From: a virus
Reading direction: 5' to 3' (one strand)
IMG/VR virus record: IMGVR_UViG_3300042516_003202
Length of the DNA: 64,000 bases
Part shown: piece after piece, positions 9 through 15,982 of the stretch
How positions within the stretch are numbered: position 1 is the first letter of the stretch
Layout: each line of letters starts with the position of its first letter
The notes under the pieces: generated by a model
The model's input: the letters and a program-made list of their open reading frames with translations, nothing else
What the model was told of the DNA's origin: nothing
Databases searched by the model: none
Translations under genes and position numbers: made by a program

Positions 9-239
9 TCATTTTGTCAAAAAATCTCCAAGTTTAGGAATTTCACCACAATAAGAAGTTACTTCTGATGGACTTCTACCTTTGAAAGCAATTCTACACT
101 CCATAGATTTGACATAAGTTTGTTTATACAGATTTTGCTTCTGCATATCAGTATAGAAATACCCAAACACCAAACTAATGATGACGGTAAAACCAAACAT
201 AACACACAGAGCAATCAGTGCTTCATCATTAAATTTCAT
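9..239 (-). CDS. hypothetical protein with N-terminal transmembrane segment
   Basis: 76-aa ORF; hydrophobic LIALCVMFGFTVIISLVFGYF; part of a coupled minus-strand ORF array. Confidence 0.7.
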   Translation of the reverse strand: MKFNDEALIALCVMFGFTVIISLVFGYFYTDMQKQNLYKQTYVKSMECRIAFKGRSPSEVTSYCGEIPKLGDFLTK

Positions 240-252
240 TTGTCAGTCCTCA

Positions 253-453
253 TTAGTTGTTCCATTTATCGTGGGCAATAATCTTACGATAAGTTGTCTC
301 ACTCACAATATCCTTCTCTAACTCAACAACAGAAGCATATTGGAGATAGAGTGCGTATTCATCCTCGTTGAAATTGATTGATGGAATGAGACCTTTGTAT
401 GATAGAAGTGATTTGGTAATCAGTTTTTCTAATTGATAATGGTCGTCAGGCAT
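253..453 (-). CDS. hypothetical protein
   Basis: Start moved from the ORF track (537) to ATG at 453, which follows a GGAGG RBS and overlaps the upstream TGA. Confidence 0.65.
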   Translation of the reverse strand: MPDDHYQLEKLITKSLLSYKGLIPSINFNEDEYALYLQYASVVELEKDIVSETTYRKIIAHDKWNN

Positions 454-722
454 CAGTCCTCCACAATCAAACAATACTTTGACTGAAAGATAAAAACATC
501 CTTTTCGTGAATAAATTTCTCTCCATTTAGTTCCCAAGAATACACAACTTCAATCCAAGGGTCTGTATCTCCATAAGTATTGAAACCTTCAACGGTTACA
601 TAACCTTTGGAACCATCTGCTCGTGCCCAACGAGAACCAACTTGGATTTCGTGTGCCTTGAAGAAATGACGGACAATTGCTCTGCGTCCATCTATGATTT
701 CAGTTTCGTAGTTCATTACCAT
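453..722 (-). CDS. hypothetical protein
   Basis: 89-aa ORF overlapping neighbours by a few nt. Confidence 0.7.
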   Translation of the reverse strand: MVMNYETEIIDGRRAIVRHFFKAHEIQVGSRWARADGSKGYVTVEGFNTYGDTDPWIEVVYSWELNGEKFIHEKDVFIFQSKYCLIVED

Positions 723-7778: not shown

Positions 7779-8008
7779 AGAAATTGATCCAGAGGTCCTT
7801 TAGTGTTTCTTTTAAGTGCTTTTGATTCTTTTTCAATATAAGATACTGCAGTTTTGTAGTTGTTTGCAGTATGCACTTGCTGCCCCTTGTAGACAATAAT
7901 GAACTTTTTCCCCCAAGGAATTGCTGCCCACTCCATGTTTTTGGTTACATATCCGTTTGGACTTCCTGGAGTGGGATCTAGAATGCCTTCGTTTTGAACG
8001 TTAGACAT
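7775..8008 (-). CDS. hypothetical protein
   Basis: 77-aa ORF coupled to neighbours. Confidence 0.7.
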   Translation of the reverse strand: MSNVQNEGILDPTPGSPNGYVTKNMEWAAIPWGKKFIIVYKGQQVHTANNYKTAVSYIEKESKALKRNTKGPLDQFL

Positions 8009-8148
8009 CAGAATTTAACGGTCACACTAACAACCTTTGCCTTAGGGTTGCGAGCAAGAGCAGTTTCACGAGCATCTTGTGGATTGGATGCCTGAACCTC
8101 TTCATTAAAGATTTTACCGGCGACATAAAGTTGAACAACGTACTTCAT
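8008..8148 (-). CDS. small conserved cyanophage protein (46 aa)
   Basis: Manual translation MKYVVQLYVAGKIFNEEVQASNPQDARETALARNPKAKVVSVTVKF. Confidence 0.7.
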   Translation of the reverse strand: MKYVVQLYVAGKIFNEEVQASNPQDARETALARNPKAKVVSVTVKF

Positions 8149-8183
8149 TTGAAAATTTCCTTTGTGAATTGAATAGAAAGAAA

Positions 8184-9410
8184 TCAGCGTCGGATGACGC
8201 TAACGGCAACATCACCTTTTACAAAGATGGTGTCAACCACGTTTTGTACTGCCCGTGCAGTAGCGCCAGATGCCTTGTCAAAGGTGGGGCAGATCACCAG
8301 TCCATAGGATTTGGTGTATGCCTCCAGATTGCCCGCCTGGAGCGCCCCAGAGCGGATTCCAGCGGCATCCTGGGGGTGTAGGCGCAGAGTACGCCCAACC
8401 GTCTGTCCGATCCCCACAACATCCATAGAGCGCATGAATACTACTGCCTCCAGAGCAGAGATGTTGATGCCTTCTGCCAGAATGCTGTGGTGCAGAACCA
8501 CAAACTTCTTATCGGCATCCTTACCCCACTTGTTGATGGTGTCAAAGAAAACCTCACGGTTCACTTGCTGCCCATCAATAAAGGCACCATGCTTGGAAGT
8601 AATGTGCATCACAGAGTAACCCTGCTCTGCCAATTGATCTGCAAAATCAGTTTCAGAAAGCAAACCGATAATGTGCTTGGTTGCTTTGGCACAGATCAGG
8701 ATCTTGTTGACAGGGTGATCTGCAATCGTTTGAAGCAGATACTCGCAATCACGTTGAGCAATATCCTCACCCTTGATGGAGAGGCGCATCTCCTTCATCA
8801 TCACCTTGGGAGGGATGATGTAACCACCTTCTACCAGTTGAGGAGCAGGAACCTTGGCGATGATCTGCCCGTAGACATCAACATCGTTCATGCCAGGTTT
8901 GCCAACCACAGAAGAGTACTTGGGAGTGGCAGTAAAGAAGTAGCAACGCTTTGCCTCTGAAGAGAAATGCTCTACAGCAGGAAAGAAGTGCCGCTTTACA
9001 GAGTTGTGTGCCTCGTCAAAGTAGATCGTATCTACAGCAATATCTGCCTTGGCAAGTTGCTGCAGAGAGTTGTAGGTGGTGAAGATCAGTTTGTGACCCT
9101 CAACATTCTCACACCAGGCACGAATCATGTTCGGGCGAGTGCTGCTGAAGTGATGAGTTTCACCTGTGTGAATGTGCATCACATGAGCATTTGTGATAAA
9201 CTCAAGATACTCACTGGACAACTGCTCTGCCAGAAGGATGCGGGGTGCCACCACTACGATGGTTTGAGGAGTCTCTTTGAGAAACTCCCGAATAGCATCA
9301 AAAATACCAACGTTGGTTTTACCACCGCCAGTAGGGAAAACACAGATGCCCTTGGCAACCTGGCGCAGGGCATCAAGAGCAATCTGTTGATGAGGGCGAA
9401 GTTGGAACAA
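8184..9410 (-). CDS. superfamily 2 DEAH helicase (ResIII-like)
   Basis: LRPHQ Q-motif, PTGGGKT (I), DEAH (II), TAT (III), QTVGRTLR (VI). TTG start at 9410 after a GGAG RBS; the ORF-track ATG at 9467 lies inside the promoter. Confidence 0.9.
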   Translation of the reverse strand: MFQLRPHQQIALDALRQVAKGICVFPTGGGKTNVGIFDAIREFLKETPQTIVVVAPRILLAEQLSSEYLEFITNAHVMHIHTGETHHFSSTRPNMIRAWCENVEGHKLIFTTYNSLQQLAKADIAVDTIYFDEAHNSVKRHFFPAVEHFSSEAKRCYFFTATPKYSSVVGKPGMNDVDVYGQIIAKVPAPQLVEGGYIIPPKVMMKEMRLSIKGEDIAQRDCEYLLQTIADHPVNKILICAKATKHIIGLLSETDFADQLAEQGYSVMHITSKHGAFIDGQQVNREVFFDTINKWGKDADKKFVVLHHSILAEGINISALEAVVFMRSMDVVGIGQTVGRTLRLHPQDAAGIRSGALQAGNLEAYTKSYGLVICPTFDKASGATARAVQNVVDTIFVKGDVAVSVIRR

Positions 9411-9432
9411 GGTCTCCGTTGCGTATGGGACT

Positions 9433-9476
9433 ATTATAGCAGAAAGGGGTCCCCGAAGGAACCCCATGTGCCAGTT
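9433..9476 (-). promoter_or_regulatory. early promoter cassette: AACTGGCAC motif, UUCG hairpin, extended -10 TGcTATAAT
   Basis: AACTGGCAC atGGGGTTCC-TTCG-GGGACCCC tttc TGC TATAAT; motif 29 nt upstream of the -10. Confidence 0.75.
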
Positions 9477-9491
9477 ATGAAATTGGTCTAA

Positions 9492-10805
9492 TCACTGAAA
9501 CTCATTGTGCTGCTCAATCATGTTTGCTTGTGGCAACCATTTGAAGTCAATAGGCTTCAAAGTTCCCTCATCATGTGCTTTGAGAACACGACGATAGTGT
9601 TTGAGCATACGCTTACGTTCACCTTCCATCAACACTCGGAGTTCATCAATGTTGTTTTCTGTAGGAGTAATACTAACACCCTGACCCTGCTCCAAGAAAG
9701 AATAAGCAGTATAGTTGTTGTTAGGATACTCAAGCTGCTTTTCAAAGATGAAATACCACTTACGGTAGTGATCTGGTTTACGCCCCCAACCAACAGCAAA
9801 AGAAGTTTGAGTTTCGTTCATAGAACTAATACGCTCACCGCAAACACCATTGATGCTAAAAACATCTTTCAAAGTTTTTTGTGCTTTTGAAATGTCGTAT
9901 GGTTCAATAGATACTTTGACACCTTCTTCGCCAAGAATTTCAGCAGCAAAAATCCTTCGGTTGTTTTTGCGAACTTCTTTGTATCGGGTTTTCAGTACAT
10001 CAATCACAACGTCAATGTCTTTTGCAATTTTTCCGTATTGAAAACCTTTTTGGATCATGTACTTTACATCATCCTCTGTACAATCATTCTTTTTTTCCCT
10101 GTTGGGAGCATTGGCGATTGCACCATATTGAAGAAGAGAATATTCATCTTCACCAGAAATGATGGCACACGGAAAATACTTCCAAGGAAGTTCAAAGCGA
10201 TTGTTGCCATCACGAACAATGTACTTAAAAGTAAATTCAGAACCATCTTCGTCAACATAATGAATTGGTTCAGAAAGAACTGATACTGCAGGTTGATAAC
10301 AGCGATAATCGTATTCGCCATCAGCAACTTCTTCAGTGATCTGGTCAATTGTTTGCTGAAAAAGTGCCTGACCAACACGAGTTTGGCATTCAATGTTAAG
10401 TTTTCGAGCAATGCTGTGAGACATTACTTCATCTTTGTGAAGAATTGCCCATTTTTCAAAGGTAATTCCAGGAGATTTGTCATAATATCGCCCGTGCTTT
10501 TCCAACTCTTCCAAATCAAAGATATTTTGGTTTGGATCAATGTATCCTTTAGTTTCAATCAAACAATATGTACCTTCAAGATCCATAGAGTCCCTACAGA
10601 ACATCCGTAAAAGTTGATCTGCCTCAAGTCGTTGAATTGCTGCACGAACAGTTGATCGCTCATCAACTACCTCATTGTAAATTTCATCAATCCTGTTTTG
10701 AACAAGAACTAAATCATAAATTTCTTGAAGAGTAAAAACAACTCCAGGAACAAAATTTTCGCGGAGAGTAAGTAGAACGTGTTCTTTGGTTGAAATCATA
10801 ATCAA
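9492..10805 (-). CDS. winged-helix plus ParB/Srx-like domain protein
   Basis: N-terminal FTLQEIY...TVRAAIQRL...GTY resembles the DpnI-type wH; central QTR...QPAV...YIVRDGNNR resembles ParB/Srx boxes. Confidence 0.55.
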   Translation of the reverse strand: MIMISTKEHVLLTLRENFVPGVVFTLQEIYDLVLVQNRIDEIYNEVVDERSTVRAAIQRLEADQLLRMFCRDSMDLEGTYCLIETKGYIDPNQNIFDLEELEKHGRYYDKSPGITFEKWAILHKDEVMSHSIARKLNIECQTRVGQALFQQTIDQITEEVADGEYDYRCYQPAVSVLSEPIHYVDEDGSEFTFKYIVRDGNNRFELPWKYFPCAIISGEDEYSLLQYGAIANAPNREKKNDCTEDDVKYMIQKGFQYGKIAKDIDVVIDVLKTRYKEVRKNNRRIFAAEILGEEGVKVSIEPYDISKAQKTLKDVFSINGVCGERISSMNETQTSFAVGWGRKPDHYRKWYFIFEKQLEYPNNNYTAYSFLEQGQGVSITPTENNIDELRVLMEGERKRMLKHYRRVLKAHDEGTLKPIDFKWLPQANMIEQHNEFQ

Positions 10806-10821
10806 TTTCGTTTACCTGCTT

Positions 10822-10850
10822 AATGTACGATGAATTCACCGCCATGTCAA
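10822..10850 (-). promoter_or_regulatory. sigma70-type promoter
   Basis: TTGACA-N17-TACATT upstream of 9492-10805. Confidence 0.75.
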
Positions 10851-10862
10851 CCCCCCAACCCA

Positions 10863-11264
10863 TTAGAAAAACTTTTCAATACCGATAAGTTCCCCAAATG
10901 AGTAGTCATACTCCAAGGCATCCGCACACACGTAATGGGGGTGGTCTACAGGAACACCAAGACGAGAGCACAATTCCTTATGATTATCTTCCATCATTTC
11001 AACGGCATAGATCATATGATTCAAAACATGTTCTTCTGTATGATATTCACAAAGCCGATTCTTAAGAGCAATCAAAAAATTACCACATCCAGCAGAATTA
11101 TCAATAAAAGTACTGTTCGGATCTTTTAGTATATCAACAGAAATATCATCAATCATACTCTCAACTAGATCCATAGGAGTAAAGACTTCTTGAGTTTCTT
11201 TAATCCTTTCATCAGATCTTTCAATCTCAGATCCAGTTTCAATATTATGCTTGTTCTTTTTCAT
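10863..11264 (-). CDS. amino-methyltransferase, SAM-binding half (motifs X-I-II-III)
   Basis: QEVFTP (X), FIDNSAGCGNFL (I), YAVE (II), ADAL (III); no NPPY motif. Confidence 0.8.
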   Translation of the reverse strand: MKKNKHNIETGSEIERSDERIKETQEVFTPMDLVESMIDDISVDILKDPNSTFIDNSAGCGNFLIALKNRLCEYHTEEHVLNHMIYAVEMMEDNHKELCSRLGVPVDHPHYVCADALEYDYSFGELIGIEKFF

Positions 11265-11835
11265 TCTTCTCTTTCAAACAATTAGTATAAGTTGAAATTA
11301 GATCGTTTTTACCGAAATGCCTTCTACCATTACAACTAGAAGCAACCTCTCTAAATCTCGTAGCAAATTCTAACAGATTTTCTATCACACTAGAATCTCT
11401 AACCTTTAGAAAATGATGTCCTTTAGCGTAATGTGTAAAGTTTTCTGTTTTAACTCTACCACTGGGTCCAGAACCATATTCACCTACAAAAACATCTGCC
11501 TCAAATCTCCTCTCATAAGGAAGAAATTCAAAGTCAGGATGTTCCCTCATCATAGGAATTTCACCTACACCAATTTGAAATCTTGATGTATTTCTAACTT
11601 CCCAGTATTGTTTAACAGCACTAATACCATTTGGGAAAGTAGAAGGATCTAGATCATCATCTACAACACAGTGAAGGTGTGCCTTAATCTTATTTAAAGA
11701 TGATGGTTTACGAACTGATGTAGGTAAGACTGCACGAATATCATCAGTGATCTCGGCAGTCTTATTAAGAAATTTTATAGCAAGGTTTCCACCCACCCCA
11801 TAAGGTGGATTAATAATAGCTAAAGTAAACTTCAT
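11245..11835 (-). CDS. amino-methyltransferase, catalytic/TRD half (motif IV)
   Basis: Starts with LAIINPPY, later AVLP; no SAM-binding motif I. Confidence 0.75.
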   Translation of the reverse strand: MKFTLAIINPPYGVGGNLAIKFLNKTAEITDDIRAVLPTSVRKPSSLNKIKAHLHCVVDDDLDPSTFPNGISAVKQYWEVRNTSRFQIGVGEIPMMREHPDFEFLPYERRFEADVFVGEYGSGPSGRVKTENFTHYAKGHHFLKVRDSSVIENLLEFATRFREVASSCNGRRHFGKNDLISTYTNCLKEKNEKEQA

Positions 11836-11861
11836 ACATGTCCTTCAAACCTAGCAAAGGT

Positions 11862-11890
11862 ATTCTACTGGGATTTGAGGTTCTTGTCAA
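11862..11890 (-). promoter_or_regulatory. sigma70-type promoter
   Basis: TTGACA-N17-TAGAAT upstream of the methyltransferase pair. Confidence 0.8.
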
Positions 11891-11893
11891 GAC

Positions 11894-14800
11894 CTAGTAC
11901 ATATCATACCAAGTAGTTCCATTGTACATTTGGTGTTTATTTACCGTAGTGTTAAATATGAAAGCTCCGGGACGAGTATGTAATCCTACTCTTTGATCAG
12001 AAGTTATTCCTGGTGGAAGCATAAATGCATATTTTGCAGATTCTCCAGTAGATCCTATGCCAACTCCAGCATAGAAAAAGTCAGCTTTACACGTAGGTTC
12101 ATCAGTTCCTATACCAATAGAACCAGAAGAATCAATTTCAATAGTTGATTCATCTACTATACGTATAGAACCTCCGGAAACGACTTGACCCGATTGGTAT
12201 AAAACTATTCCACCATTTCCAACATCATTAGTATTAACTCCAACAGCAATTGCTGGACTAATAATTCCTCCAGCAAGTCCTCCTCCTTGTGTTATAATAT
12301 GTATTGATGCGTTTGGTGAGGTTGTCCCAATTCCAATACCAGATGCTTCTGTTATACTAACAATACCAGTAATAGATAGTTCGTTAAATGTTGATATTCC
12401 AACTTCGGTGAATACATTTCCGTTTAATTGGGTTCCTTCCGCGAGTCTAAGGGTTGTAATTCCAGTAATAACTGTATTCCCATTAACTCTTAAATTACTA
12501 AATGTGGATACTCCTGATGCAAATAATCCATTACCAACATATAAATCTCGAGAAATTGTTACTCCAGTGCCAGTTGCTCCAATTTTTCCATTTACATATA
12601 AATCATTTCCAATATAGGTATCTGAAGTAATTGTGGATGTTCCAACAACATGCAAATTATGCTGCGGTTCATCTTGATTAATTCCCAGTTTTCCATCATA
12701 AGTTAAAGTCATTATCTCGTTACTGAGATAACTATTATTCCATTTAAATGAACCAGTATTAATACCAGCAACTCCACCACTATGAAGATTAAAATTAAAA
12801 CTTCCTACAGTTCTATTTTCAAAAGTAAAATCAGATCCACCAAAAATTAAACGTCCTTGATTAGATAAACTTGAGAGTATTAATGAAGAATTAGAAGTCT
12901 TAGAATCTATTTTAATAGAAACTGTTGATTGATCAACAACTTCCAATTTACTGGATAAAGATGTTGTAGTTCCAATACCAACGTAACTAGAATCAACATA
13001 TAAAGGTCCAGAATATATTTCATTATCAACTATAAGTTGATCTGATATTCTAACTAAACTGGATGTAGATTGTAATATTAATTCTCCTGCGGCGGTATCA
13101 ATTATATTACCACTACCAGAAACTCCTAATCTAATTTTATTAAAATATGCAGATCCAAAAGCTTTTGAAGAACTACCTACTGATCCATTATTATTGGAGA
13201 TTGGTAAAATAGCAGATCCGACAGTTGCTATACCAATTATATTTAAATTATTTGATTCTAAATTACTATTTACAAATAAAGAATTTGTTACAGTTACAAT
13301 ACCAGAAGAAGATGTTAATTGTAATGTATTAGAATTTCTAGTCCCTATTGAATTTGTTCCGGCAACACCTATTGTAACCTCATTAATGTATGCGTTTTCG
13401 AATGCTGTTGCAGCATATCCAATAGATGATCCTTTATCGGAATCTGGAGAAATATTAATATTTACTATAGAATAATCACTATAAAGATTGGGTGCAGTTA
13501 ATATACCAGAAACATTTAAATTACGCTCAGAAATTAAATCTTTAGAAACTAATACTCTTCCAGTAATTGAGTCTAATGTAAGATTTCCAGATCTAGTGCT
13601 TATAATTCCGGCACCAAATGCTCCAATATTAATATTTGCAATATGGGCATTTGCAAATGAAGTTCCAGCAGATCCTAAGTATGATCCACCATCACTATCT
13701 GGAACAACTGAATCATTGATGATAAGATCAGTTAGTGTAGAGATGCCAGTTACTGATAAATTCCTGTTTACAATAAAGTCTTTTACGACAGATACTTTTC
13801 CAGTATTTGAATCAAGACTTAAATCACCAGATCTCGTACTTACAATTCCTGCAGCGTTTGCGACTCCAATTTGAACTTCATCAATATAAGCTTCTGCCAA
13901 TGATTTAGAACTGGAACCCAAATATCCACTATTATCGTTCGTTGGAATAATACCTGTAGTAATATTAACAAGACCAGATAATGTAGAAATTCCAGTTACC
14001 GAAACATTTCTATTTACGATAAAGTCTTTTACGACAGATACTTTTCCAGTATTGGCATCAAGACTTAAATCACCAGATCTTGTGCTGACAATACCAGCAG
14101 CATTTGTGACTCCAATTTGAACTTCATCAATATATGCTTCGGCAAATGATTTTGTAGAAGACCCTAGATAACCATTATTATCATTTGACGGGATAATTCC
14201 GGTAGTTATATTGACAAGACCAGATAAAGTAGAAATACCAGTTACTGAAAGATTTTGCCCTATGCTAAAATCTCTTACAACAGATACTCTTCTGCTGTTA
14301 GCATCAAGACTTAAATCACCAGATCTTGTACTAACAATACCAGCAGCATTTGCAACACCAATTTGGACTTCATCAATATATGCTTCGGCAAATGATTTTG
14401 TAGAAGATCCTAAACTTGCAGAAAGATCAGTGTTTGGATTTAAACTTCCACTAATATTAATTGAACTGTTAAAGGTAGAAATACCACTAAATGTAGAGTT
14501 TCTAGATACTGAAAGATCTTTAGAAATTGAAACAGTTCCAGTATTTGAATCAAGACTTAAAGCTCCAGATCTTGTACTTACAATTCCTGCGGCGTTTGCA
14601 ACTCCAATTTGGACTTCATCAATATACGCTTCAGCAAATGATTTTGCAGAAGATCCTAGATAACCACTATTATTAGAATCTGGAACTATACCAGTTGCAG
14701 ATGTTACTATGCCTGCTAGATAAGAATTGCCAGAAACATAAAGATTATTTGATACTTCTATTTTTGTTCCTGCAGAACCTAAAAATAAATCTCCAGAATT

Positions 14801-15982
14801 TGTTTCTATTTTATTAGAAACATCATTTATTCTAATATTTCCTGAATGTAGTTTGGAAATAGTTCCAACACCAGAAGCGTTAATATTTGTAGAATTTACA
14901 AATCCTGCGGTAGTTACACCAATATTCGAATATGTTGAATTTAAAGAATTTGTTGTAATAATACCAGAATTAACTTGCGTTAATTGTGATGCGAAAGAAT
15001 TTGTTCTAAAAACATTTAATGTAGTAACAATTCCAGTATTAGTAACTCTAAGATTTGATGTTGTTGTGAATCCAGATGAAAAAATATCATTAGCAGTAAG
15101 AATACCAACAGTAACAATTCCTGATACTGAAATATCACTAGACCAATTAACTCCATTAGATCCATTTGAAACTAAAAACTGACCAGGATTTCCATTACTA
15201 CCTGCAATGGAAACTCTTGCTCCTCCAGAAAATGTTAAATCACTTGAATTAATTTCGAATCCATTTGATGCATAGAATGACCCACCAGTAAATGATGATC
15301 CCGTAACATTTCTGCTGAATAAACCATTACTATTAAAAGTAACTACACCAATATATGCTCTAGTTGCTGTCAGGGTTCCTACTGTTGCGATGCCTGATGG
15401 CAAATTAATGTTATTTGGTAATCTTGCATTATCTAAAGTTCCTGAAGAAATATTAGATGCATTTATGTTGGTAATATTTGTACCACTTCCATCAAAAGAA
15501 CCTGCGGTTATAATTCCAGATGCTCTAATATTTCCAGTAGAATTAATACCAACACCAATTTGTCCAAGTTCAGTTCTTCCCCCTATTTGCAAAGTTTGAG
15601 TTGGAATATTGGTTGCAATTCCAACTCTATTTCTAAGAATATAAGAACTTGTAATTCCAGGCTGATTATAGTCTACCCATTGATTGGTTGGTATTCCATC
15701 TAAATACGAACCGTCTCCATAATATCTCGTCGCACTTATTATTCCAGAGTCGGTCATCGTAATATATGAACCAACCCTCAAATCAACAAAAGAAGCGATT
15801 CCTGAGATAATCATCGCTTTCATGGTTGATAAACCAGAAACAGAGATATCTCCGTATACGTCAAGATTAGTTCTAGGAATAGTCGTTCCTATACCAACAA
15901 GTCCATTAGCATTTACGAAAAAGTTATCCTCATCAACTTGAACACCATTCCTAAAACTAAATGACTTATTATAATTTGCCAT
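11894..15982 (-). CDS. tail fibre / virion structural protein with internal 82-aa repeats
   Basis: 1362 aa; recurring GLVGIGTT and TGISTL fibre motifs; tandem YLGSS.KSFAEAYIDEVQIG repeats. Confidence 0.8.
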   Translation of the reverse strand: MANYNKSFSFRNGVQVDEDNFFVNANGLVGIGTTIPRTNLDVYGDISVSGLSTMKAMIISGIASFVDLRVGSYITMTDSGIISATRYYGDGSYLDGIPTNQWVDYNQPGITSSYILRNRVGIATNIPTQTLQIGGRTELGQIGVGINSTGNIRASGIITAGSFDGSGTNITNINASNISSGTLDNARLPNNINLPSGIATVGTLTATRAYIGVVTFNSNGLFSRNVTGSSFTGGSFYASNGFEINSSDLTFSGGARVSIAGSNGNPGQFLVSNGSNGVNWSSDISVSGIVTVGILTANDIFSSGFTTTSNLRVTNTGIVTTLNVFRTNSFASQLTQVNSGIITTNSLNSTYSNIGVTTAGFVNSTNINASGVGTISKLHSGNIRINDVSNKIETNSGDLFLGSAGTKIEVSNNLYVSGNSYLAGIVTSATGIVPDSNNSGYLGSSAKSFAEAYIDEVQIGVANAAGIVSTRSGALSLDSNTGTVSISKDLSVSRNSTFSGISTFNSSINISGSLNPNTDLSASLGSSTKSFAEAYIDEVQIGVANAAGIVSTRSGDLSLDANSRRVSVVRDFSIGQNLSVTGISTLSGLVNITTGIIPSNDNNGYLGSSTKSFAEAYIDEVQIGVTNAAGIVSTRSGDLSLDANTGKVSVVKDFIVNRNVSVTGISTLSGLVNITTGIIPTNDNSGYLGSSSKSLAEAYIDEVQIGVANAAGIVSTRSGDLSLDSNTGKVSVVKDFIVNRNLSVTGISTLTDLIINDSVVPDSDGGSYLGSAGTSFANAHIANINIGAFGAGIISTRSGNLTLDSITGRVLVSKDLISERNLNVSGILTAPNLYSDYSIVNINISPDSDKGSSIGYAATAFENAYINEVTIGVAGTNSIGTRNSNTLQLTSSSGIVTVTNSLFVNSNLESNNLNIIGIATVGSAILPISNNNGSVGSSSKAFGSAYFNKIRLGVSGSGNIIDTAAGELILQSTSSLVRISDQLIVDNEIYSGPLYVDSSYVGIGTTTSLSSKLEVVDQSTVSIKIDSKTSNSSLILSSLSNQGRLIFGGSDFTFENRTVGSFNFNLHSGGVAGINTGSFKWNNSYLSNEIMTLTYDGKLGINQDEPQHNLHVVGTSTITSDTYIGNDLYVNGKIGATGTGVTISRDLYVGNGLFASGVSTFSNLRVNGNTVITGITTLRLAEGTQLNGNVFTEVGISTFNELSITGIVSITEASGIGIGTTSPNASIHIITQGGGLAGGIISPAIAVGVNTNDVGNGGIVLYQSGQVVSGGSIRIVDESTIEIDSSGSIGIGTDEPTCKADFFYAGVGIGSTGESAKYAFMLPPGITSDQRVGLHTRPGAFIFNTTVNKHQMYNGTTWYDMY
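13130..14720 (-). repeat. about seven tandem 81-85-codon repeats, four spaced exactly 246 nt apart
   Basis: Anchor positions 14638, 14392, 14146, 13900 (246-nt steps), then 13657, 13402 and about 13159. Confidence 0.85.

Follow-up and report, generated by a model that had tools for sequence, protein, structure and literature searches.

Two short open reading frames (ORFs) that overlap on the minus strand of a cyanophage genome raise the question of whether they encode the two halves of a single DNA methyltransferase, with the gene for the catalytic half placed ahead of the gene for the cofactor-binding half. The pair occupies positions 10863–11835 of the window, a 64,000-nucleotide (nt) stretch of the IMG/VR virus record IMGVR_UViG_3300042516_003202. 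The host record is a 178-kb IMG/VR contig of a T4-like cyanomyovirus, which CheckV rates as 83% complete; among isolates, P-SSM2 and P-SSM5 are closest to it. We propose, with a probability of roughly 60%, that the two products form a two-subunit N6-adenine DNA methyltransferase of the gamma type (M.TaqI/CamA/Eco57I-like), which would work by fragment complementation and would be expressed from a sigma70-like early promoter.

The first gene, referred to as the large ORF (11835..11245, minus strand), encodes 196 amino acids (aa) and comprises the catalytic half of the enzyme (beta4–beta7, motifs IV–VIII) and a putative small C-terminal DNA-recognition domain, without beta1–beta3. Its N-terminus reads MKFTLAIINPPYG, and motif IV, NPPY, is located at residues 9–12 (11800..11811, minus strand). 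The second gene, the small ORF (11264..10863, minus strand), encodes 133 aa and comprises the half predicted to bind S-adenosylmethionine (AdoMet), namely, N-terminal helices, motif X and the beta1-alphaA-beta2-alphaB-beta3 unit. The core of motif X, EVFTP, is found at aa 26–30 (11175..11189, minus strand), and motif I, FIDNSAGCGNFL, is found at aa 53–64 (11073..11108, minus strand), where it contains the glycine loop NSAGCGNF and aligns to motif I of CamA. Acidic residues are present in motif II (IYAVE, E89) and motif III (YVCADAL, D115). The start of the small ORF lies inside the end of the large ORF, giving a 20-nt overlap (11245..11264, minus strand); taking the large ORF as reference, the small ORF is read in the +1 frame. 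An earlier note, made from the letters of the window alone, had described an upstream ORF beginning at motif IV and a downstream ORF carrying motifs X-I-II-III across a 20-nt overlap, and this description was exact on each point.

The homology and predicted fold of the small ORF identify it as an AdoMet-binding half. It matches phrog_4376 from end to end (E 2e-73), and its sequence also matches the N-terminus of CamA from C. difficile. An AlphaFold2 (AF2) model built from an 82-sequence alignment had a predicted local distance difference test (pLDDT) score of 89.8 and a predicted template modelling score (pTM) of 0.81, and displayed helices followed by beta1-alphaA-beta2-alphaB-beta3. The top structural match of this model was CamA residues 9..158 (Z 11.9, root-mean-square deviation [rmsd] 2.5, 114 aligned residues), and further matches were BsaXI, MmeI, the M subunits of EcoKI and StySJI, and M.BseCI. 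Residues E26, F28 and T29 were invariant in alignment A4, and these three together with P30 were nearly invariant in alignment A7; in motif I, A58, G59, G61 and N62 were invariant.

For the large ORF, the match is to positions 92–288 of the 377-position profile phrog_5172 (E 3e-61). The protein is also a homolog of a coliphage product of 264 aa, annotated as 'putative N6-adenine methyltransferase' in rV5- and phAPEC8-like phages; that product has an X-I-II-III region of its own ahead of NPPF. The fold of the large ORF was modelled through the relative P0247 (251 aa, 79% identical in alignment A6), for which AF2 gave a pLDDT of 88.9 and a pTM of 0.80. The first methionine of the large ORF corresponds to M63 of P0247, 2–4 residues ahead of beta4; from the start of beta4 onwards, the model contains beta4–beta7 with NPPY following beta4, and then an alpha/beta C-terminal domain of approximately 100 residues. 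The whole P0247 model aligned with CamA 54..576 (Z 11.8), M.TaqI 39..409 (Z 11.6) and M.BseCI 43..536 (Z 11.2), and the C-terminal residues 150–251 were covered only within these whole-model alignments (rmsd ~4). In the 123-sequence alignment A6, the N, the second P, the Y and the following G of NPPY were invariant, and the first P was nearly so. The model alignments thus place the small ORF on CamA up to residue ~158 and the large ORF on CamA from approximately there on.

Relatives encoded in the canonical order locate the point at which the pair is divided. The single chain P0043 runs ...VCGDALKFDYWGGMKFDVVVGNPPY, that is, the C-terminus of the small ORF joined to the N-terminus of the large ORF, with '...VCGDALKFDYWGG' passing directly into 'MKFDVVVGNPPY', and P0138 is another canonical-order relative that reads straight across the split point. 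The cut is in the beta3–beta4 loop, between motifs III and IV. In the window, the order X-I-II-III-IV-...-TRD, where TRD is the target recognition domain, is therefore not found in one polypeptide; it is divided over two ORFs, and the IV-TRD gene comes first. The complementary coverage of CamA and the joining of both halves in P0043 support the view of the earlier note that the two ORFs are halves of one gamma-type amino-methyltransferase.

The divided arrangement is conserved. The same large-then-small pair is present in P-SSM2 (PSSM2_036/037) and P-SSM5 with 20-nt overlaps, in S-SKS1 with a 17-nt overlap, in Klebsiella phage PKO111 with a 14-nt overlap, and twice in S-CAM7, where each pair has a 4-nt ATGA overlap. 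In a survey of IMG/VR, 425 relatives of the small ORF were detected, and the best 80 loci were taken, of which 73 were scorable. An intact large ORF overlapped by the small ORF was present in 64 of these 73 loci, with NPPY at residues 9–15, or at residue 70 where an N-terminal extension is present, and with overlaps of 8, 11, 14, 17, 20, 26 or 44 nt. A contig end cuts five further loci, the large ORF is shortened in four (L026, L039, L040 and L046), and a fused locus occurred in none of the 73. A search among longer proteins likewise returned no fused close relative.

Both ORFs are under strong purifying selection, and synonymous sites are saturated. Compared with P-SSM5, the proportions of non-synonymous (pN) and synonymous (pS) differences were 0.15 and 0.69 for the large ORF, corresponding to a ratio of non-synonymous to synonymous rates (dN/dS) of ~0.09, and 0.14 and 0.83 (saturated) for the small ORF. 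Every small ORF has its own start codon and a conserved MxKNKHN N-terminus. Because the split is conserved and saturated pS is combined with low pN, neither a sequencing error nor pseudogene decay nor a conserved frameshift signal explains the pair well, and the split is a stable and widespread state that is found in hundreds of phage contigs. A genome-wide search of the 178-kb record found one small ORF and no match to PF07669 or PF02384, which leaves the adjacent large ORF as the only visible partner. The only other methyltransferase found in this record is an ordinary beta-class N6/N4 enzyme (PF01555, 112 bits) at G000:C1:78291-78923 (locus L172), 23 kb away.

Relatives of the small ORF show how its module is combined elsewhere. 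When the small ORF was used as the query in a profile-free search of 1.84 billion representative proteins, 946 clusters were returned at E <= 1e-3, and these were grouped according to where NPPY lies with respect to the module. Many were canonical gamma-order enzymes (P0043, P0034, P0047, P0052, P0058, P0138 and P0278–P0287). Others were permuted single chains with NPPY first and the module last, including P0022, P0005/6/8, P0100, P0151 and p090 of Aeromonas phage Aeh1 (415 aa; phrog_11371); for P0022, homologs cover only the C-terminal module, which is ~25% of the protein. Fused homologs in both orders, for which the earlier note had suggested a search, thus exist, with P0043 and P0138 as canonical examples and Aeh1p090 and P0022 as permuted ones. 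Approximately 70 relatives of the module were stand-alone small proteins. In P0003, one chain holds a complete canonical methyltransferase and, after it, a second copy of the module; this protein is a singleton on a 2.3-kb contig and could be a frameshift-fused pair. At locus L179, a small ORF lies ahead of an NPPY-first ORF, making this locus a candidate for a canonical-order split, and it could equally be a frameshifted canonical gene. The permuted chains support complementation in two respects. NPPY-first single chains have no other N-terminal half, so that the module must be the AdoMet half in these proteins, and a protein that starts at beta4 needs the small-ORF module to function.

Several further observations concern these relatives. 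A GIY-YIG-like ORF is located just upstream of the L179 split, and the large subunit of Klebsiella phage PKO111_114 (L009:991-2478) starts with a GIY-YIG (LEM-3-like) nuclease domain (PF22945, E 3e-15), to which its NPPF catalytic half is fused; homing endonucleases may have been involved in creating these splits. In a well-supported clade (P0004, P0036, P0038, P0039, P0048, P0049, P0053, P0063, P0067 and P0103), a module of the EPSAGDGNF type is followed by a C-terminal region of 150–350 aa with no NPPY and no recognised domain.

A tree of the module was constructed from 127 columns, unrooted and with support from the Shimodaira–Hasegawa-like approximate likelihood ratio test only. The cyanophage small ORFs grouped in a supported clade (95) that contained no rows other than split and stand-alone ones, and the next supported clade out (97) held P0003 and the canonical P0034. 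Permuted fusions were spread over the tree, and at least three changes of arrangement are required by the supported branches. The Aeh1 fusion was sister to the split Klebsiella PKO111 pair (96) and not to the cyanophage clade. Being unrooted and short, the tree does not indicate in which direction the arrangements evolved. The suggestion of the earlier note that the pair might be an intermediate of circular permutation needs correction: fused, split and duplicated relatives do exist, but the split itself is stable and widespread, not a fleeting stage, and the tree does not order these states in time.

In the two-subunit enzyme that we propose, both ORFs would be co-transcribed from a sigma70-like, presumably early, promoter, and translation of the small ORF would be coupled to that of the large ORF through the 20-nt overlap. 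The large subunit would supply the NPPY catalytic loop, beta4–beta7 and the small C-terminal DNA-recognition domain, and the small subunit would supply motif X and the beta1–beta3 AdoMet pocket. Beta1 of the small subunit is predicted to pair with beta4 of the large subunit, completing a seven-stranded Rossmann sheet in which AdoMet would be bound in trans. NPPY and the structural neighbours favour N6-methyladenine (m6A) in DNA as the product; the earlier note had left the choice between m6A and N4-methylcytosine, and its assignment to the amino-methyltransferases stands, with the balance now towards m6A. The likely role of the enzyme would be to methylate phage DNA against host restriction.

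The promoter-like site (TTGACA-17 nt-TAGAAT, 11862..11890, minus strand) is located inside the 58-nt gap upstream of the large ORF. It matches 11 of 12 consensus positions and is the best-scoring site in 8000–12500, the score being a consensus match only. Together with general phage-methyltransferase biology, the site suggests early expression and protection from restriction. On the far side of this gap, a 1362-aa repeat-rich fibre-like ORF (11894-15982, minus strand) ends 58 nt upstream of the methyltransferase pair, and the position of a promoter-like site after such an ORF suggests a late-to-early transcription boundary.

Several results weigh against this account. Pfam gave weak support: the large ORF had no hit at all (E <= 1), and the small ORF matched N6_Mtase (PF02384) at positions 21–89 with E 0.003 and 17.5 bits, below the 20.4 cut-off, so that neither ORF reached the Pfam gathering threshold for PF02384 or PF07669. 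The main difficulty lies in relatives that have an N-terminal half of their own. Approximately 15 of the 120 listed clusters of large-ORF relatives (245–261 aa; P0247, P0251 and L013 among them) carry a 60-aa N-terminal extension with the pattern '..LIVGDPSGLHS..IWVWEND..INIVEDL..'. In the AF2 model of P0247, this extension folds confidently as beta1-alphaA-beta2-alphaB-beta3 and completes the Rossmann core, which matches KsgA and ErmC' with Z ~13. It is also under purifying selection, with dN/dS of 0.12–0.37 compared with 0.03–0.14 for the core, a constraint 2–5 times weaker. Phages with the extended large ORF still have the small ORF. The same extension heads the phrog_3689-type methyltransferases, including S-CAM7 gp056, Bellamy gp86, ACG-2014f gp053 and the MA01 fusion, and the small ORF is present, adjacent or one gene away, in all 22 isolate records with a methyltransferase of this type. 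P0003, with its complete canonical enzyme and an extra module, belongs with these observations. A small ORF that is kept beside a complete N-terminal half may act otherwise than by completing the fold, or in addition to it, and simple complementation does not explain its presence beside large ORFs with a complete fold. This is the main reason that our confidence in the two-subunit enzyme is no higher.

The extensions differ among relatives. They measure ~250 aa in S-SKS1, 57 aa in L091/L092 and 20 aa in S-CAM7 gp076, and the large ORF of the window has none. Comparison of the S-SKS1, phrog_3689-type and rV5-type extensions with the small ORF by hhalign gave nothing significant (probability <=2%, from shallow profiles), and the P0247 extension was recognised as a beta1–beta3 half by its AF2 model and not by sequence. 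One possible reading of this series is that an original N-terminal half became redundant once the module had been gained, and that the extensions represent successive stages of its loss.

The same observations are the basis of the strongest competing explanation, which we regard as unlikely. According to this explanation, the small protein is not the missing half; it is an auxiliary or regulatory subunit, such as a second AdoMet-binding or specificity-modulating module or a partner shared by several different catalytic subunits, and the large protein of the window lineage, without beta1–beta3, is inactive or binds only adenine or DNA. Besides the persistence of the small ORF next to folded and selected N-terminal halves, its occurrence near every phrog_3689-type methyltransferase and the extra module of P0003, this explanation gains from the identity of small ORFs across cyanophages (63–80%), which is far above that of their partners (22–43%), and from the unrelated partners of the two S-CAM7 copies. 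It conflicts with the permuted NPPY-first chains, in which the module is the sole N-terminal half, and with the conservation of motif I, II and III residues in the small ORF. The invariant or near-invariant NPPYG and the dN/dS of ~0.09 in window-type large ORFs, maintained over more than 100 clusters, would also be hard to explain for a dead enzyme.

It is far less probable that the pair modifies RNA or protein instead of DNA. NPPY also occurs in HemK/PrmC, RsmC/D and Trm11-type enzymes, and the Rossmann core of P0247 taken alone was best matched by rRNA and tRNA methyltransferases (KsgA, ErmC' and TrmN; Z ~13). Once the C-terminal domain is included, however, matches over the whole length are confined to the DNA adenine methyltransferases CamA, M.TaqI and M.BseCI; in addition, every top structural match of the small ORF is a DNA m6A enzyme, and relatives carry PF02384/PF07669 and adjoin restriction-type genes.

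Production of a single polypeptide, with a beta-like order as in Aeh1, by programmed +1 frameshifting or transcriptional slippage in the overlap (GAAAAAG) is similarly improbable. In its favour are the +1 frame of the small ORF, an A5 run in the overlap where the loss of one A would fuse the frames, and the existence of fused permuted relatives. Against this, the overlaps of relatives vary in length (4, 8, 11, 14, 17, 20, 26 and 44 nt) and in sequence with no conserved slippery site among them, the ATGA overlap of S-CAM7 lacks an A run and places the two ORFs in another relative frame, five A residues make a short run for slippage, there is no known +1 signal, and each small ORF retains its own start codon and MxKNKHN N-terminus. 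Programmed frameshifting is unlikely because the overlaps lack a conserved length, frame and slippery site. An assembly or sequencing frameshift, which the earlier note had named as a possible undoing of its claim, or a decaying pseudogene is effectively refuted: one homopolymer indel would give such a picture, and the large ORF is indeed shortened at four of the 73 IMG/VR loci that were scorable, but the arrangement recurs in at least three isolate genomes and 64 independent metagenomic contigs, with both frames intact and under selection despite saturated synonymous sites.

The two-subunit methyltransferase that we favour can be compared with several known systems. The pair has in common with gamma-class m6A enzymes (M.TaqI, CamA, M.BseCI and the Eco57I type) motif X, a motif I of the xxSAGxGNF type, NPPY and the predicted folds of both halves, with a C-terminal recognition domain as a putative further resemblance. 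Unlike these enzymes, the window pair is divided into two polypeptides between motifs III and IV, the gene for the catalytic half and the TRD comes first, and the putative recognition domain of the pair is much smaller than that of CamA or M.TaqI. In beta-class enzymes (M.PvuII, M.RsrI and M.MboIIA; PF01555), the linear order IV–VIII, TRD, X, I–III is the same as the gene order of the window. The swapped order pointed out by the earlier note is thus real in comparison with the gamma class, but it is the ordinary order of the beta class and not new. The pair differs from the beta class in its gamma-type motif I and nearest structures, and neither ORF matches PF01555, for which the positive control gene of the same genome scores 112 bits; the lack of a match points to an independent permutation within the gamma-type lineage.

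The permuted Aeh1p090/phrog_11371 type has the same order as the window pair, with NPPY N-terminal, then the recognition region, and then X-I-II-III. The small ORF matches phrog_11371 at positions 273–362 (E 4e-15) and Aeh1p090 at residues 283–369 (38% identity, E 1e-13). The Aeh1 type is one chain, and the window pair has a stop and a restart. A single-chain permutant was already known, as 'a circularly permuted version' of M.EcoKI-like adenine methylases has been mentioned in jumbo phages (Iyer et al. 2021, PMC7824862).

Division over two genes also has a precedent in another class of enzymes. M.EcoHK31I is a natural two-polypeptide C5-cytosine methyltransferase. M.AquI, cited in PMC5944983, is likewise a natural two-polypeptide C5 methyltransferase. 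In M.AquI and M.EcoHK31I, the methyltransferase is divided over two neighbouring genes, and both products are needed for activity; the window pair resembles the M.AquI type in that two adjacent genes would contribute to one catalytic unit. Unlike these C5-cytosine enzymes, it is an NPPY amino-methyltransferase, it is cut inside the Rossmann sheet, and its gene order is swapped. In the literature, we found no natural amino-methyltransferase described as being cut inside the Rossmann sheet and encoded in swapped gene order, and for PSSM2_036/037 no annotation beyond 'hypothetical' was found. To our knowledge, the pair would be the first natural amino-methyltransferase to be cut inside the Rossmann sheet.

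The genes around the pair and its relatives provide some additional context. Directly downstream of the small ORF is a 437-aa ORF (9492-10805, minus strand) of phrog_33124 (function unknown) with a ParB/Srx-like 'VRDGNNR' motif, for which Pfam gave a weak hint of a GntR-type winged helix (E 0.034). A similar ParB-like ORF follows the pair at the IMG/VR locus L092, in P-SSM2 and in P-SSM5, and not in S-CAM7 or Bellamy. The two small-ORF copies of S-CAM7 (L004, 42500-52000), gp057 and gp077, differ from each other with pN 0.18. The former overlaps gp056, which is of the phrog_3689 type and follows a 'type II restriction subunit' gene, and the latter overlaps gp076, which is of the phrog_5172 type; gp064, an ordinary PF01555 methyltransferase, lies between the two pairs. 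Bellamy gp87 (L006:1939-2502) and ACG-2014f gp052 (L005:2985-3587) were considered as 'large' partners and rejected, as BLASTP showed no similarity and both belong to phrog_7683. These 187–200-aa proteins are located between the phrog_3689-type methyltransferase and the small ORF and show by eye a PD-(D/E)xK-like 'D...Q(F/I)K' pattern. They may be small Mrr-type nucleases, in which case the cluster would resemble a phage-borne restriction-modification unit.

A broader possibility, which we offer tentatively and consider somewhat doubtful, is that T4-like phages maintain a modular system in which one conserved and portable AdoMet subunit serves interchangeable catalytic/recognition subunits. 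This idea draws on the two pairs of S-CAM7, on the occurrence of both phrog_5172- and phrog_3689-type partners, and on partners with or without an N-terminal half of their own. In the same scenario, the family would preserve most of the arrangements proposed for permutation as selected genes, namely, canonical, duplicated, split (mostly swapped, with one canonical-order candidate) and permuted-fused forms.

DNA methyltransferases, with their alpha, beta and gamma classes, are a textbook case of circular permutation. Jeltsch is said to have proposed in 1999 a route of duplication followed by truncation; the other proposed route is fission followed by re-fusion, and both have mostly been inferred from end states. 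One phage family with canonical, duplicated, split and permuted-fused forms allows the route of permutation to be tested by experiment on natural proteins. For split-methyltransferase tools, the small subunit would offer a natural scaffold. If the proposed two-subunit methyltransferase is true, a function would be assigned to the 'hypothetical' PSSM2_036/037 pair of P-SSM2 and P-SSM5 and to its counterparts in several hundred marine phage contigs.

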